From contig OZ240240.1 in NCBI GenBank assembly GCA_965198105.1, positions 3,187,103-3,251,102 of the forward strand: 64,000 nt of DNA, given 5' to 3'. Under the pieces are notes generated by a model. The model searched no databases and had not been told where the DNA came from. It was given only the letters and a program-made list of their open reading frames with translations. Both the position numbers and the translations under genes were made by a program. Positions within the stretch are counted from its first letter, which is position 1. Every line of letters starts with the position of its first letter. Below, piece by piece: positions 6,925-50,033 of this stretch. This stretch comes from Dehalococcoidia bacterium. GTDB taxonomy: Bacteria; Chloroflexota; Dehalococcoidia; Lucifugimonadales; CBDBON01.

Positions 6925-7021
6925 AACTGTTCAGACTCCATGAGTAATGCGGTCGGTTGGTGGGTGGAGAGGGGGCTCTTACCTCTTCTCCCGTCCGCGG
7001 GGGAAGATTGAGATGGGGGTC
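6925..7021. repeat. About 97-bp composite REP element (family C + inverted family A)
   Basis: Second copy of the element at 5917..6015. Confidence 0.85.
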
Positions 7022-7032
7022 CCCCGCGCCCG

Positions 7033-7617
7033 TCAGCTCTGCCGGGCGAAGGCGAGGCCCCACACCGACCCGGCCCCGGCCTCCTTCAGAGCGGCGGCGC
7101 AGGCGGACATAGTGCTGCCGGTGGTAACGACGTCGTCTATCAGCAGGACCGACTCGCCGCTCAGGCCGGTCGGGCACGCGAAGGAGCCCTCGATGTTGGA
7201 CCTCCGCTCCTCGTAGTTCTCGATCGAGACCTGCGGGAGCGTGTTCCGCACGCGGCGGACGATGCCGGGCCTCACCGGGAGACCGGCCCTCCTCCCGACC
7301 GTCCGGGCCAGAAGCTCCGACTGGTTGTATCCCCGTCTCCTCTCCCGCCGCGGGTGGAGAGGCACCGGCGCGATCACCTCTCCCGGAACCTCGTGCGCTC
7401 CGAGGAAGTCGGCAAGCAGCCGCGCCATGTCGGGGGCAACGGCCCTGAAGTTGGCGTACTTGAGGCTGTGGACCAGCCGCCGCGCGGCGGCATCGAACAG
7501 GCATACGGCCCTGACGCCGGCGGAGACGAGGCGCACGCCTCGCACCGCCTGCCGGCGCCGGGATGGGCGCACCGCGGACAGTAGGGCCTGTCGAGTCTGG
7601 AGAGCGACGCCTCGCAC
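7033..7617 (-). CDS. comF: ComF-family phosphoribosyltransferase-like protein (Zn-finger N-terminus is in another frame)
   Basis: The PRTase signature LLIDDVVTTGSTM and the ComF core LKYANFRAVA are present. ORF 7374..7688 in another frame encodes the expected CxxC...CxxC...CPRC...CEAC N-terminus. Confidence 0.7.
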   Translation of the reverse strand: MRGVALQTRQALLSAVRPSRRRQAVRGVRLVSAGVRAVCLFDAAARRLVHSLKYANFRAVAPDMARLLADFLGAHEVPGEVIAPVPLHPRRERRRGYNQSELLARTVGRRAGLPVRPGIVRRVRNTLPQVSIENYEERRSNIEGSFACPTGLSGESVLLIDDVVTTGSTMSACAAALKEAGAGSVWGLAFARQS

Positions 7618-45477: not shown

Positions 45478-47895
45478 ATGCACCAGGAGAGTAAGTCCGT
45501 GATGCCTAACGAGCATAGCACTCCCGGTCTGAGCTTCCAACCCCCCCGCATCTCGCTGATGGATGCAGTCAACGCGCTCGGCAGCTACATGCTCGGCGCG
45601 AATTTCGACGGCATCAAGACCAGATGGGAGATCGACGCTCAGGATATGCGGACCGACTGCCCCATCTGCCGCCAAGAGTTTGCCGTGCAGCTGCTACCGC
45701 AGACGAACGGCAGTATCAAGGCAGAGTGTCTCTCTGATGCTGGGTGCAAGAAGCGCGACCTTGAGCGCCGTCTCAAAGAGGATCGGGGCCTCGGCCTCCG
45801 CCGTCGCAAAGGGAGTAAGCCCCGCGCCCCGAAGGACCTGACGGTCGACACGCCGATCTACGAGGACTCTGTGACGGGAGACGGCTGGCGGCTACTCTGG
45901 GAGCACGGCCCCCGCCTCTTGCTAGTCTGGCGCCTCGGACAGCTCGGAGACGTTTACGTGCTCGATCTGGACTCCGGGACGTGGCGGGCCGACCGCAACG
46001 AACTTGGACACCTACATGAACGTGCCGCACGACAATACGCCGTCAACATGGCGCTCCGCGCCCAGCAGGGCGAGGCCGAGATGAACAAGGCCCTCGCCTT
46101 TCAACGTTGGGCCAGGCGGACGCAATCGAGCGCGGGCCTAGAGAATGTCATCAAGTGGGCGGGTGTGGCCTACAAGGCCATGGATGAGGAGGGGCTCGGC
46201 TCAAAGGTTGGAAGAGTCGCCCAGGCGCACGAATTGGATGCCGACCGGCACTATCTCGGCTGCGCCAACGGTGTCCTCGATCTGACCGACGGTCGACTCC
46301 TCGGCCCGGACGAGGCGCAGAAACACCTAGTCACCCGGTCGACCGGCATCGGCTATGACCCGGACGCGCACCATGACTACGTTGACGAGCTGCTTTACCA
46401 CCTAGCCACCGTCGAGGCGGACTACATCCTCGACAGCGCGGCCTACGCTTTGCGCGGGAATCCCGGCCGGCGCTGGCATCTGCTCGTGGGCGAGAAGGGG
46501 GGCGGCAAGACGACGTTCCTGAACGCGATCCGCGCGGCCGTCGGAGATGCGGACGCCTATGGCTACGGGTTCGGACTCAAACCGGGCCTACTCCTGAAGG
46601 ACCGCAACCCGTCGCGCGAGGGACACACCGAATCGCTGAAGCATTTCCCGGTGGGCCGCATCGCCACAGCCGCAGAGCTCCCGGACATGAGTAAGCGATT
46701 CGATGACGACTTACTCAAGATGTTGACGGGCGGCGACCCGATACCCATCCGCGAGATTTACGGCCGCATGGGGGCGAGTCGACCATGCTCGGCTACCATC
46801 TTCCAAGCGATCAACCCGGGCCAGTTGGCGCGGCTATCTCTCATCGACGATGCCCTTGCCGATCGCACGTCGATTCTACGCTGGCCGACTCTCCCGTCGG
46901 GCACGAAACGCGACAGCGACCGGGTAACGGACGTTATGGTCCCGGACGTAACTAGGGCGATGCTGGCCGAACTGGTGCGCCGTGCCGTTAAGCTGAAGCA
47001 GCCGCCGCCCATGCCGGAGAACGTGAAGGACTACGTAGAGCAGAAGCGCCGGGGCGACTTGGGAGAGGTCGGGGCTTGGTTCCTGGTCAACATCGAGATC
47101 ACCGACTCGCCGAAGGATGTAGTGACGCCGGAGCAGATTTGGGATGCCGCGATTGATGCCGTGGGGCCGCTCGACGACAAGGAGAAGCTGCACGGAATGG
47201 ACCGCAAGGAGACGCTGGGGCTACTCCGGGAAGCGAAACCGGGCCTGCCGGCGCAACGGTCGAAGCGCATCGACGGCAAGGTGCGGAATGCCTATGTCGG
47301 AGTCCGGCTACTGGACGTCGTATACCAATGTTCTATCTGCTTCAAGGACATGAACGACAAGACTGACCTGAAAGACCTAGCCGGTCGCGGGCCGGTGTGT
47401 CCCGACTGCCGAGCCCCCCACGACCTGGGCGATCCTCCGGTCGCGCCGCCTACGGCGGCGCCCGGCGGCCCGCACACACAGGCCCGGTTCGCGGGATCCC
47501 CGCCCCCGCCACTCCACACGGCGCTACTCACCCGTATGGAAACCTTGCGGGCCGCGCTCCACTTCCCCGATCCCGACGCCTATGATACCCCTGCCCAGCT
47601 TAAGGCGGCGCTCCGCGGACTGGCGAAGCTGTACGAGGCCCGACCGTGGGACGTGCTGGGGCCGCGCCATGTAGAGGCCCTCGGCGGGGCTGACCTAATG
47701 GTCAGCATCGTTGCGGGCGCATGGGCGGATAATGCCGCCGAAACCGCGCCGCTGGAAGCGGCGGACTGGAATTGGTACCTGAACGATCTTCGCCGGTACG
47801 TCGACGACCGCGAGGCCGACCAGCGCGAGGCCGGAGCCGCTCGGGTCCGGGAGTTACCGTCTCGGATGCTGTCTCGGCAGATGCCACTGAGCTAG
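45478..47895 (+). CDS. Phage/plasmid primase-helicase, P4/D5 family
   Basis: 805 aa with an N-terminal Zn-finger CPICRQEF, a D5_N-like middle region, the P-loop GEKGGGKTTF, and a second CSIC...CPDC finger. Confidence 0.8.
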   Translation: MHQESKSVMPNEHSTPGLSFQPPRISLMDAVNALGSYMLGANFDGIKTRWEIDAQDMRTDCPICRQEFAVQLLPQTNGSIKAECLSDAGCKKRDLERRLKEDRGLGLRRRKGSKPRAPKDLTVDTPIYEDSVTGDGWRLLWEHGPRLLLVWRLGQLGDVYVLDLDSGTWRADRNELGHLHERAARQYAVNMALRAQQGEAEMNKALAFQRWARRTQSSAGLENVIKWAGVAYKAMDEEGLGSKVGRVAQAHELDADRHYLGCANGVLDLTDGRLLGPDEAQKHLVTRSTGIGYDPDAHHDYVDELLYHLATVEADYILDSAAYALRGNPGRRWHLLVGEKGGGKTTFLNAIRAAVGDADAYGYGFGLKPGLLLKDRNPSREGHTESLKHFPVGRIATAAELPDMSKRFDDDLLKMLTGGDPIPIREIYGRMGASRPCSATIFQAINPGQLARLSLIDDALADRTSILRWPTLPSGTKRDSDRVTDVMVPDVTRAMLAELVRRAVKLKQPPPMPENVKDYVEQKRRGDLGEVGAWFLVNIEITDSPKDVVTPEQIWDAAIDAVGPLDDKEKLHGMDRKETLGLLREAKPGLPAQRSKRIDGKVRNAYVGVRLLDVVYQCSICFKDMNDKTDLKDLAGRGPVCPDCRAPHDLGDPPVAPPTAAPGGPHTQARFAGSPPPPLHTALLTRMETLRAALHFPDPDAYDTPAQLKAALRGLAKLYEARPWDVLGPRHVEALGGADLMVSIVAGAWADNAAETAPLEAADWNWYLNDLRRYVDDREADQREAGAARVRELPSRMLSRQMPLS

Positions 47896-48204
47896 ACCGC
47901 GAGGTGACAGGTGGGCCAGCGCAGCTGGCCCGCCACAGCAGGGGGACATTGACTAGCACTCGGCACTATCATCTCTGGGCGCCTCCGGCAGCTGACGGTG
48001 AAGTGCGGACACTCCGCAAGGATTCGCGGCGATTCCCGTCGCGCTCCGAGGCGAACGCGGCGGCGCGGGAGTCGGAGCGCCGGGGAACTCGAGTCTTGAT
48101 CTGCCGCGACGCTGCTTGTCCGCCCCCGGCGCGACGGCTCCCCGGCCAATCGCCGTTCTGAGGCGGCGGGACGGAGCCGAACGAACGGAGATCGAGGAGA
48201 CACG

Positions 48205-48438
48205 ATGACCCACCACGAACCTGCAGGCTGCGAGATCGAGGGCTGCGGCCGCTGTGACGATTACGGACTCGGCTACTCGGCTGGCAAATCAAAGATGCTA
48301 TTCGAGATCGGCGCGACCGTCACGGGCGGCCATCCTGCCGACTGCACGTGTTCCACGTGCGGCCAGCTGCGCGGGGAGATAGCCCGCCAGCGGGCGGATA
48401 TGTTCGCCGATGCAATATCCGAGCTGGCGGGGGTGTAA
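48205..48438 (+). CDS. Small Cys-rich protein, HPxxCxCxxC family member 1
   Basis: GAGGAG lies 7 nt upstream. CEIEGCGRCDDYGLGYSAGKSKMLFEI...GGHPADCTCSTCGQL is a clear paralogue of the ORF at 48885. Confidence 0.65.
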   Translation: MTHHEPAGCEIEGCGRCDDYGLGYSAGKSKMLFEIGATVTGGHPADCTCSTCGQLRGEIARQRADMFADAISELAGV

Positions 48439-48478
48439 CGATGCCTAGGGCTGGTGGAATCCTAATTCTCACAGAGCT

Positions 48479-48694
48479 TTGAGGGCGCGCGCAGCCCGTC
48501 TGGGGATCACGTTGAAGGGTAGACTCGGCTACTTCCATCTGGTGAACGGCCAGGGCGAAGTGCTGACCGACCGGAAGTTGCGGGAACCGGAGATTCTCAT
48601 ATGGCTGGACGTCGCCGCCGAGCAGCACCGCGCCGACTGTGTCTGCGCTCCATGCTCGAACTTCCGCGCGGTCCGGGCGCGGTCGAGGGGCTGA
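48479..48694 (+). CDS. Small protein with C-terminal HRxxCxCxxC motif (start uncertain)
   Basis: EQHRADCVCAPCSNF. Its stop lies 2 nt before the next start. TTG start with no clear RBS. Confidence 0.4.
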   Translation: MRARAARLGITLKGRLGYFHLVNGQGEVLTDRKLREPEILIWLDVAAEQHRADCVCAPCSNFRAVRARSRG

Positions 48695-48696
48695 CT

Positions 48697-48888
48697 ATGG
48701 AGCGCATGGCGGGCGAGTGCATGACAAAGCTACGATTCAAGACGGGCTACGGCGCGAGGGCGGCCCCCGACCGGCTGAATTCAAGGGCGGACACGTTCGG
48801 GGTGCTCGAGGTCTATCGCTGCCGGAGCTGCGGGCTGTACCACCTGGCGACGGCCCGGCCCAGGGTGAGAAGGAAGGTGGCAAGATGA
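48697..48888 (+). CDS. Small CxxC protein
   Basis: GAGGGG upstream. EVYRCRSCGLYHLA. The stop overlaps the next ATG (ATGA). Confidence 0.5.
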   Translation: MERMAGECMTKLRFKTGYGARAAPDRLNSRADTFGVLEVYRCRSCGLYHLATARPRVRRKVAR

Positions 48889-49163
48889 TCAGGCTACACG
48901 ATTATTCGGCCTGCCGATTGAACCTCTGTGAGCGCTGCCATGACTTCGCCACGGGCTGGGCCTCTGGCAAGGAGAAGCAACTGACCGAGATCGCCTCGAC
49001 GATAGCGGAGCAACACCCCAAAGGCTGCCATTGTTCCCCGTGCGCGGCTCTCCAAAGCGAGGTCGAGGCGCTGAGCAGACTGAGCGGCGGAAAGTATGCC
49101 AGTCTGGCTAGGCTGCTTCCCCGTCGGCGGGCGGTAGCGGCCGCCGACGGGGAAGCCCAATGA
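48885..49163 (+). CDS. Small Cys-rich protein, HPxxCxCxxC family member 2
   Basis: CRLNLCERCHDFATGWASGKEKQLTEI...EQHPKGCHCSPCAAL. ATGA overlaps on both sides. Confidence 0.65.
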   Translation: MIRLHDYSACRLNLCERCHDFATGWASGKEKQLTEIASTIAEQHPKGCHCSPCAALQSEVEALSRLSGGKYASLARLLPRRRAVAAADGEAQ

Positions 49164-49408
49164 CCGGCCACCCAGACGATTGCGACTGCTGGCATTGTGA
49201 GGTTCGACCCGTCTTCGAGGCGGGCTTCCGGCTGGGCTTGAGGCGAGGCCGGGATAGTGGCTGGCGGCGCGGCTTCGAGGCGGCGGGTCATTTCAGGCGG
49301 GCCGAGGCCCAGGTCGCCGCCGTCCGTCACCACCCGGAGGCCTGCCCTTGTGGGGAGTGCGTGGAGGCCAGGGCCGCCTTTTACCGGTGGATGGAGATCG
49401 GCGGCTAG
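49160..49408 (+). CDS. Small protein with two HPxxCxCxxC motifs
   Basis: GHPDDCDCWHC and HHPEACPCGEC. It is translationally coupled to the previous ORF. Confidence 0.6.
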   Translation: MTGHPDDCDCWHCEVRPVFEAGFRLGLRRGRDSGWRRGFEAAGHFRRAEAQVAAVRHHPEACPCGECVEARAAFYRWMEIGG

Positions 49409-49529
49409 CCCCGGCAGACCCACCCCCGCGCGCACGCGCACGTCACGGAGTGGCGGGGGGTCAAAATCCTGTCCCTATATATATAATATGAACGGGCTTT
49501 TCGACTCATACATGCATGGGCGTGACAGC

Positions 49530-49934
49530 TCATGCGGTATTCCCCCGGTTGAGCGGCGTGCCCGGGAAGCGCGTGGGCACGTTCTTGATCGTGACATGAA
49601 CGGGCGTGGGCGGGGGAGCGGGCCTGGCTTTGACTCGCGGCGGGCCGTCCGGCAGCACGATTTTCATTAGCTCGTCAAGCTCTTCCTCGTGGGTCATTAC
49701 CGGCTTAGTAGACGGCTTGGGGGGCTGCTGTCTGAATTGGCCCGCAAGCTGCACGTATCGTCCCGGGCCGTGTCTGCTGGTCTCCATCTGGGGCTGCTCG
49801 CTTTCAGCCTCTTCGGCCTTCCGCTGCTCGTAGAGCGCTTGTCGGTGAGCGGGAGAGCACGTCTTCGAGGTCGAGCGGGAGTACCGGTACTGGTTGCCGC
49901 AGTAGTCACAGCGTCGCCGTCTCGTCTTTGCCAT
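49530..49934 (-). CDS. Hypothetical Zn-ribbon protein
   Basis: N-terminal RRRCDYCGNQYRY...CSPAHRQALYEQRK. It is divergent from the iteron region. Confidence 0.5.
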   Translation of the reverse strand: MAKTRRRRCDYCGNQYRYSRSTSKTCSPAHRQALYEQRKAEEAESEQPQMETSRHGPGRYVQLAGQFRQQPPKPSTKPVMTHEEELDELMKIVLPDGPPRVKARPAPPPTPVHVTIKNVPTRFPGTPLNRGNTA

Positions 49935-49949
49935 AAAACCGCCCTCCCC

Positions 49950-50033
49950 TTACCGTCAGATTAGCGTCAGTCGCTCGTATCTGTTAGCGTCAGCCTTACC
50001 GTCAGCTTATCGTCAGTCGCGGTCTGACGGTAA
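49950..50033. promoter_or_regulatory. Iteron array: five direct TTA[CGT]CGTCAG repeats plus one inverted copy
   Basis: Direct copies at 49950, 49961, 49984, 49996 and 50007. Inverted ctgacggtaa at 50024. Spacing is mostly 11-12 bp. Confidence 0.7.

Follow-up and report, generated by a model that had tools for sequence, protein, structure and literature searches.

Five small open reading frames (ORFs), lying downstream of the replication gene of an integrated island in a Dehalococcoidia genome, include two members, O1 and O4, of a conserved and previously unnamed family of mini-proteins of about 55-60 residues. So far the family is known only from mobile elements of Dehalococcoidia (Chloroflexota), and its members, judging from their pattern of potential ligands, are probably zinc-binding. 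The stretch of DNA analysed, called the window hereafter, is 64,000 nucleotides long and corresponds to C1:3187103-3251102 of a single-contig genome of 3.65 Mb (G000). Among the other ORFs, O5 is a divergent member of the family and O2 holds the relic tail of a third member. The ORFs, together with a very short frame lying between the first two, are the following:

48205-48438, + strand: O1, 77 aa, a full family member with Hx4Cx4Cx2C, GYSAGKSKMLFE and Hx3CxCx2C.
48441-48482, + strand: mini-ORF of 13 codons, starting as TAA-cg-ATG, its TGA overlapping the TTG of O2 at 48479.
48479-48694, + strand: O2, 71 aa, TTG start, a chimeric ORF.
48697-48888, + strand: O3, 63 aa, a small CxxC zinc-ribbon-like protein of a different family.
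48885-49163, + strand: O4, 92 aa, a full family member and paralogue of O1.
49160-49408, + strand: O5, 82 aa, a divergent member with two motifs.

A first-pass annotation of the window had described five co-directional small ORFs at 48205-49408. They are present as claimed and show a coding-type composition: the GC content at the third codon position (GC3) is 0.72-0.84 and is the highest of the three positions in all five, and GC2 is the lowest in four of them, the exception being O3, where GC1 is marginally lower. Long host ORFs present the matching pattern, and a non-coding reading of O1 to O5 was rejected on the grounds of GC3, conservation and the ratio of nonsynonymous to synonymous substitution rates (dN/dS). 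The five instances of the motif H-[PR]-x-x-C-x-C-x-x-C that had been listed were all recovered, and their clustering is far beyond chance, for a six-frame translation of the whole genome, 7.29 million residues in length, contains H[PR]xxCxCxxC just six times, with five instances within the 1.2 kb of the O1-O5 region and one in a second island. The motif had been assigned to four ORFs, which is correct as to its presence, but one of these ORFs, O2, is not an independent gene and is better described as a chimera made by a deletion.

Translational coupling had been proposed along the whole row. Reading the junctions in the sequence agrees with this from O2 onward, with a gap of 2 nt between O2 and O3 and ATGA overlaps between O3 and O4 and between O4 and O5, but O1 and O2 are 40 nt apart. 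The only bridge between them is the mini-ORF, whose ATG at 48441 lies 2 nt past the O1 stop and which would couple this stop to the TTG start of O2. The O1 ATG is preceded by GAGGAG, 5 nt upstream, and no Shine-Dalgarno sequence is visible in the sequence ahead of O2. Nor does O1 directly follow the replication gene, as had been stated: this gene ends at 47895, which leaves 309 nt before O1, so that O1 is not coupled to it. Scans of the region from 45 to 50.3 kb for promoters, terminators and Rfam families found nothing above chance. A possible sixth small ORF (47949-48161, + strand, about 70 aa, TTG start after AGGGGGA) lies in this interval and resembles a 52-aa gene of another locus, L017, where the latter overlaps the beginning of the family gene (pairwise E 3e-7); it was set aside as doubtful because its flat GC3 carries no coding signal and its E-value at database scale is 0.25.

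The paralogy of O1 and O4, noticed from the letters of the window, was confirmed by 36% identity and a BLASTP E-value of 2e-17. Both contain the core xYxxG[YW]xxGKxKxxxE followed by H-x3-C-x-C-x2-C, both match the family profile across its full length (4e-29 for O1 and 1.4e-28 for O4), and they share with two further paralogues of the genome the invariant residues H, C, C, C, K, E, H, C, C and C. The consensus of the family is [H-x4-C-x4-C-x2-C]-x-x-Y-x-x-G-[YW]-x-x-G-K-x-K-A-x-F-E-(6-12)-H-x3-C-x-C-x-P-C-x-x-[IV]-R, in which the short core consists of xYxxGYxxGKxKAxFE, a linker of 6-12 residues and Hx3CxCxPC. H43, C47, C49 and C52 are invariant or nearly so, and likewise G23, G27, K28 and E34. 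A Cys/His cluster usually stands upstream of the core but is variable across the family: it is Hx4Cx4Cx2C in O1 and O4, some members have C-x-C-x3-C-x-C in its place, and P0162 and P0177 have none. The C-terminal motif is tandemly duplicated in P0004, P0006, P0014, P0017 and P0055, and it is found without the rest of the core in O2, O5 and one frame of the locus L028. O5 matches the profile weakly with each of its two motifs (3e-4 and 9e-6, in a search space of five sequences) and is colinear with the family in a MAFFT alignment, its N-terminal cluster being replaced by a second Hx3CxCx2C; O2 matches with residues 45-69 only. O3, the one of the five ORFs not credited with the motif, belongs to a different family of small zinc-ribbon proteins and matches phrog_14788 and phrog_15216 (1.3e-5 each), both phage families annotated as function unknown.

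Two additional observations concern variants of this architecture. The motif-only frame of L028 (about 6940-7080, + strand, ...GGHVRTCTCVDCTNRR...) comes from another Dehalococcoidia metagenome-assembled genome (MAG) and has a family gene about 1.1 kb downstream of it; it echoes the N-terminus of O5, which suggests that stand-alone ORFs with this knuckle may recur. Many members, including P0021, P0057, P0061, P0119, P0114, P0117 and P0156, carry an extra C-terminal tail, H-[IL]-x-D-C-x-G-x-G-C-x-A-S-C-x-C-W-C-H, which is absent from the copies of the window and is probably a further metal site.

Homologues with the conserved motif, on whose existence the first-pass proposal depended, make up more than 100 sequence clusters. 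With O1 as the query, exhaustive phmmer searching of 1.84 billion cluster representatives returned 111 proteins at E <= 1e-3, and a profile search of a 5.8-billion collection returned 106 relatives. None of the latter has a precomputed Pfam domain, and where a source name is given it reads "hypothetical protein", in one case for a Chloroflexi bacterium MAG. Pattern scans using narrow sub-alignments on one genome per GTDB species gave 10 loci, all from Chloroflexi, Dehalococcoidia or SAR202 MAGs. A search among relatives of the window found the family in three of 61 genomes, G000 itself included, and it is sporadic within the phylum since none of 400 other sampled genomes had a match at E <= 1e-5. 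The first-pass annotation had recognised no named domain, and rightly so: O1 and O4 have no match in Pfam, NCBIfam, PHROG, PADLOC or the sequences of the PDB, and the scans of O2 and O5 against Pfam, NCBIfam, PHROGs and PADLOC gave nothing usable, the weak PHROG matches spanning the motif only. None of these four ORFs matches an annotated family of Pfam or PHROG. A profile search of the PDB yielded only a chance match to ribosomal L34 (E 0.12), relatives were found neither by tblastn of O1 against GenBank phages nor by scanning IMG/VR with P0119, and a word-index homologue search with O4 recovered O4 itself only. No paper describing the family was found in the literature, and the elements of a preprint on Dehalococcoides IME1 differ from those carrying it.

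The AlphaFold2 model of O1, computed from an alignment of 85 rows, has a mean pLDDT of 87.8 and consists of two long helices (residues 15-40 and 50-75) forming a hairpin. The loop between them contains H43, C47 and C49, and helix 2 has C52 in its first turn; helix 1 likewise has C17 in its first turn and is preceded by H4, C9 and C14. Foldseek with this model gave no PDB match at E <= 10 and nothing significant in BFVD. In the model of O5, which is of low confidence (pLDDT 63), each motif stands just before a helix. We infer that each H-x3-C-x-C-x2-C unit would bind one Zn(II) through its His and three Cys and would cap the N-terminus of the next helix, and that the N-terminal H/C3 cluster would be a second, dispensable zinc site at the opposite end of helix 1. 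Two independent His-Cys3 sites are proposed because the C-terminal unit is portable, because the N-terminal cluster is dispensable and because O5 exchanges the latter for a second copy of the former.

Conservation could be measured on a sister island, L032, a metagenome contig of 9.8 kb in which the homologue of O5 is 93-95% identical. Its genes compare with those of the window in the following way:

D5_N helicase, 907 aa: nucleotide identity of about 92% for the first 2 kb, beyond which the C-terminus differs.
79-aa gene: unrelated to O1.
97-aa gene: orthologue of the N-terminal part of O2.
Family-like gene: motif tail in another frame.
O3-like gene: 75% identity to O3, dN/dS 0.53.
O4-like gene: 54% identity to O4, all Cys and His kept, dN/dS 0.27.
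O5-like gene: 93% identity to O5, both motifs intact, dN/dS 0.61.
Convergent zinc-ribbon gene: 65% identity to the 134-aa protein of the window, dN/dS 0.27.

The dN/dS between the two islands is 0.34 for the N-terminal part of O2 and 0.26 for that of the helicase, and every Cys and His ligand of O4 and O5 is retained. The family is conserved and under purifying selection, the constraint on O4 and the GC3 pattern bearing out the coding status assumed in the first-pass annotation.

The comparison with L032, realized by blastn and MAFFT together with three-frame translations, also revealed the origin of O2. The family-like gene of L032 reads ...DSYLRGKRRMLVELVAG in one frame, and the matching tail, AEQHAADCGCPPCANRRAVRARSRD followed by a stop, is in another frame; this break could be a real frameshift or an error, the name of the contig suggesting about 3x coverage. 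At the same point the window is without about 173 nt, and the upstream gene is joined in frame to the tail. O2 is therefore a chimera, because this deletion fused the upstream gene in frame to the tail of a paralogue: its last 26 or so residues (AAEQHRADCVCAPCSNFRAVRARSRG) are the tail of a third family member, and its N-terminus is cut short by an in-frame TAG where L032 reads on upstream. O2 is possibly a relic. Between 47460 and 48459 of the window, corresponding to 2024-3039 of L032, a cassette of about 1 kb has been swapped, both flanks being 75-92% identical. The C-terminal domain of the helicase and the first small gene differ completely inside it, O1 being missing at the corresponding position of L032 and an unrelated 79-aa ORF standing there.

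The first-pass annotation had suggested looking for linkage of the homologues to P4-type primases and integrases, and in other elements they are indeed linked to P4-type integrases and helicase-primase genes. Family genes are located beside replication or integration genes of a mobile element in the window, in a second island of the same genome, and at L013, L022, L023, L024, L030, L031 and L032; they are co-directional with the replication genes, often overlap them, are frequently tandem paralogues and often have a NinG-N-type zinc ribbon as neighbour. The second island (C1:2037000-2045000 of G000; L005 9077-16991) has two adjacent paralogues at C1:2037.8-2038.3 kb, in the order P4-type integrase, AlpA, Toprim primase, AAA_25 helicase, 587-aa gene and the two family genes, followed by a convergent zinc-ribbon gene whose product is 50% identical to the 134-aa protein of the window. 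It is flanked by insertion sequence (IS) elements, and one of its paralogues has an extra C-terminal Cys-rich extension. In L023 the order is D5_N helicase, 72-aa gene, family gene, 89-aa gene and a NikA-like gene; in L030 and L031 it is integrase, AlpA, large replication gene, 117-124-aa gene, family gene and an ORF in which a Cys/His pattern of HNH type was read by eye; and in L022 it is integrase, methyltransferase, family gene and three small genes.

Two other elements are contigs with terminal redundancy. L013 (ERZ28763718 ctg34284) carries a zinc-ribbon ORF, a family gene, Toprim primase, AAA_25 and a 574-aa gene and is apparently a circular element of about 13.1 kb; a PLD nuclease and an Eco57I-type methyltransferase are among its further genes. 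L024 (ENA ERZ28763718 ctg5483), in which a zinc-ribbon ORF is accompanied by two family genes in tandem and by a third that is truncated, is apparently circular as well, at about 9.4 kb. It also has an AAA_25 helicase and portal and head-completion genes and could possibly be a capsid-forming satellite or a very small phage. Fusions are known for two members: P0110 joins ParB_N, HTH_ParB, the family domain and two CxxCG...YCSxxC ribbons, and in P0020 the upstream zinc-ribbon ORF is joined to the family domain. Taken over all these elements, the family is prone to duplication, its N-terminal cluster tends to be lost or exchanged, and its genes tend to be replaced in cassettes.

The window island itself may be a satellite of P4-like or PICI-like type; a tRNA-adjacent integrase, a D5_N helicase and iterons are present. 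Besides the small ORFs its features are:

34644-34718: tRNA-Glu, adjoining the integrase and marking the boundary of the island.
34801..36099, + strand: P4-type tyrosine integrase (Pfam Arm-DNA-bind_3 2e-19, Phage_int_M 1e-19, Phage_integrase 6e-14).
45478..47895, + strand: replication protein of 805 aa with an N-terminal Cys cluster, D5_N, a P-loop helicase region and a C-terminal zinc ribbon.
49440..49535, no strand assigned: conserved non-coding block, CACGTCACGG ... TCAAA ... CCCTATATATATAATATGA ... GCTTT..GA..CA.ACAT.
49530..49934, - strand: convergent gene for the 134-aa zinc-ribbon protein, with a NinG-N-type ribbon (CxxCG...TCSxxH) and the conserved C-terminus HVTIKNVPTRFPGTPL.
49950..50033, no strand assigned: iteron array of TTA[CGT]CGTCAG in five direct copies (spacing 11, 23, 12, 11) and one inverted copy.

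The replication protein had been labelled a primase, a name which the domain content does not justify. It has D5_N (Pfam 4e-16) and a P-loop region of the P4-alpha C-terminal type and matches only the C-terminal parts of primase profiles, namely phrog_1156 "DNA primase" (7e-34, restricted to profile positions 328-776 of 855) and TIGR01613 primase_Cterm (5e-14, under its curated cutoff). Scans with Pfam, PHROG and NCBIfam detected no primase catalytic domain in it. The iterons, obtained from a repeat search (families D1, I4 and I5), are likely to represent a candidate origin for this D5_N helicase protein. An AlpA gene like that of the second island was not found in the window island.

The non-coding block lies between the converging O5 and zinc-ribbon genes and was aligned in three islands, its copies being at about 9490-9590 of L005 (reverse strand) and about 4150-4250 of L032. 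Over about 75 nt it is AT-rich and, among the three islands, better conserved than the genes on either side, whose identity is 50-65%; a 19-mer of it occurs in the whole genome only at the two islands, and the block always adjoins the 3' end of the gene for the 134-aa zinc-ribbon protein. Such a block might serve in origin unwinding, as a site for packaging, recombination or the binding of a protein, or as an antisense promoter. The zinc-ribbon protein matches the N-terminus of NinG in Pfam (0.017) and phrog_12986 (1.6e-4).

The first-pass idea of a regulatory, anti-defence or interference module is a guess, and PADLOC returned nothing in its favour. As to function, we favour a scheme in which the family members would be zinc-stapled protein-binding adaptors, made with the early or replication transcript of the element, this being the weakest step of the proposal. 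Their target would be peculiar to the host lineage or to a helper phage, the effect being take-over, regulation or counter-defence, and they would probably work together with the neighbouring NinG-N-type zinc-ribbon protein. Such an adaptor aimed at the host lineage or a helper is our leading but tentative explanation, which we put just short of an even chance. It is favoured because the family sits beside unrelated replication machineries (D5_N/P-loop in some elements, Toprim and AAA_25 in others), because all the named sources are Chloroflexi, Dehalococcoidia or SAR202 MAGs, because the core, with a median net charge of -2 and a pI of 5.8, is mildly acidic, and because tandem paralogues and the cassette replacement that removed O1 in L032 suggest fast turnover. 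Several points weigh against it. The ParB and zinc-ribbon fusions of P0110 and P0020 point to DNA-related work, and K28, K30 and R56, which are conserved, offer possible DNA contacts; metal binding is read from the ligand pattern, AlphaFold placing no metals in its models, and the structural model of O5 is a low-confidence one; the dN/dS of O5 is 0.61, though it is calculated from 12 substitutions only; and the copy of the module in the window, with an IS-riddled island and the relic O2, may be decaying. The more ambitious proposition, that the portable His-Cys3 knuckle defines a lineage-specific family devoted to host- or helper-directed take-over or counter-defence in satellites, small phages and integrative plasmids of Dehalococcoidia and SAR202, we regard as doubtful.

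The same fusions and basic residues are what make DNA-binding regulators, or accessory factors of partition or of the origin, a possible if less probable explanation, to which we would give about one chance in four. The hairpin would then dimerise and bind element DNA (iterons, promoters or the AT-rich block), either by itself or together with the NinG-N-type protein, and control replication, copy number, segregation or a lysogeny switch. In agreement with this, the iterons and the non-coding block are only 40-600 nt away, a zinc-ribbon gene is directly upstream of the family gene in L013 and L024 and convergent with it in the window, the second island and L032, and a ParB-like ORF of 450 aa, identified by eye, lies about 2.5 kb from the family gene of L025. 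But the acidity of the core speaks for another role, Pfam and Foldseek detected no HTH, RHH or known DNA-binding fold, most family loci have neither a homologue of the 134-aa protein nor the AT-rich block, and the ParB fusion is a single case among about 200 sequences. A dedicated cofactor of the replication enzymes, such as a loader of the helicase or a zinc-binding primase subunit provided in trans, would explain why the family genes are co-directional and often overlapping with helicase-primase genes in about eight contexts, and why the replication protein of the window has no detectable primase catalytic domain. One enzyme with its own cofactor is, however, less likely than an adaptor, and we consider it unlikely overall: the two replication modules accompanied by the family are unrelated, the family genes of L017, L021 and L022 have no replication gene nearby, and the sister island keeps the same helicase yet has O1 swapped for an unrelated gene. 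Slightly more improbable still is that the small ORFs of the window are decaying remnants, presently functionless, of a family that is real elsewhere. The truncation and fusion of O2, the several IS insertions of the island, with IS21 and IS110 ORFs, and the gap of 309 nt after a helicase gene whose C-terminus was replaced would fit such a decay, but O1, O3, O4 and O5 are intact with all their ligand residues, O4 is under constraint, O5 is 93% conserved with both motifs intact, and the start-stop overlaps are preserved.

Small cysteine-rich proteins are common in mobile elements, and the present family, previously unnamed, is of this familiar general kind; what is distinctive is its portable His-Cys3 knuckle and its narrow host range. 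To our knowledge the mobilome of Dehalococcoidia and SAR202 is poorly known, in a lineage with almost no genetic tools, and GKxKAxFE ... Hx3CxCxPC provides a compact marker for integrative or episomal elements in these genomes. A short helical hairpin, probably zinc-stapled and with a portable knuckle, is moreover structurally testable. If the proteins are merely structural or accessory DNA-binding ones, the gain is a useful annotation and nothing more. If they have a host or helper target, they would open the biology of elements and hosts in Dehalococcoidia and SAR202, and the take-over or counter-defence reading, if true, would give a first molecular handle on the conflict between elements and hosts in an abundant and largely uncultivated group.

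Comparison with known small zinc proteins gave analogies but no assignment. The closest structural logic is that of the small t antigen of polyomaviruses, as known from SV40. In its unique domain, which is small and all-helical, a single zinc is bound by each CxCxxC cluster and an additional ligand upstream (Cys103 or His122); the final two Cys of the cluster stand at the N-terminus of a helix, and the motif mediates protein binding (PMC1945078). The H-x3-C-x-C-x2-C of the family would provide the same set of ligands, one His and three Cys, and in the O1 model C52 is likewise in the first turn of helix 2 and C49 just before it. The two differ in the spacing of the His (x3 instead of about x15) and in organisms and context, which are unrelated, and no similarity of sequence or fold was detected, with no Foldseek match in the PDB; the resemblance, to a predicted metal site, is an analogy and not homology. 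The zinc motif of ZAS anti-sigma factors, H-x3-C-x2-C (Pfam zf-HC2), also belongs to small regulators that bind another protein, and the predicted site of the family similarly opens with H-x3-C in a helical protein. The family is nevertheless not a ZAS because its spacing differs and no zf-HC2 match was obtained at E <= 1; of the listed ORFs and called genes of the neighbourhood, none was noted as coding for a sigma factor.

The closest functional analogy may be with the Ogr/Delta proteins of P2 and P4, late-gene activators of about 70 aa that bind zinc through a C4 pattern, C-x2-C-x22-C-x4-C, and of which P4 Delta is a tandem duplication. They resemble the family in size and are coded by a phage or a P4-type satellite, and the duplication in Delta recalls the tandem paralogues of the family; the family genes, unlike theirs, follow a helicase gene and are not in a late-control cluster. 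Membership was rejected given the different Cys pattern and the lack of a Pfam Ogr_Delta match. The zinc fingers of DksA/TraR (zf-dskA_traR), of C4 type and placed after a coiled coil, were discarded for want of any Pfam match or Foldseek match in the PDB, and WhiB-like proteins for want of a Pfam match; the Cys patterns of both also differ from that of the family. Finally, a last likeness concerns the partner gene and not the family: with weak matches (E 0.017 and 0.001) and without the HNH nuclease part, the 134-aa protein and the ORFs upstream of the family genes in L013 and L024 share a ribbon of the CxxCG...[YT]CSxxC type, which resembles the N-terminal ribbon of lambda NinG/Rap.

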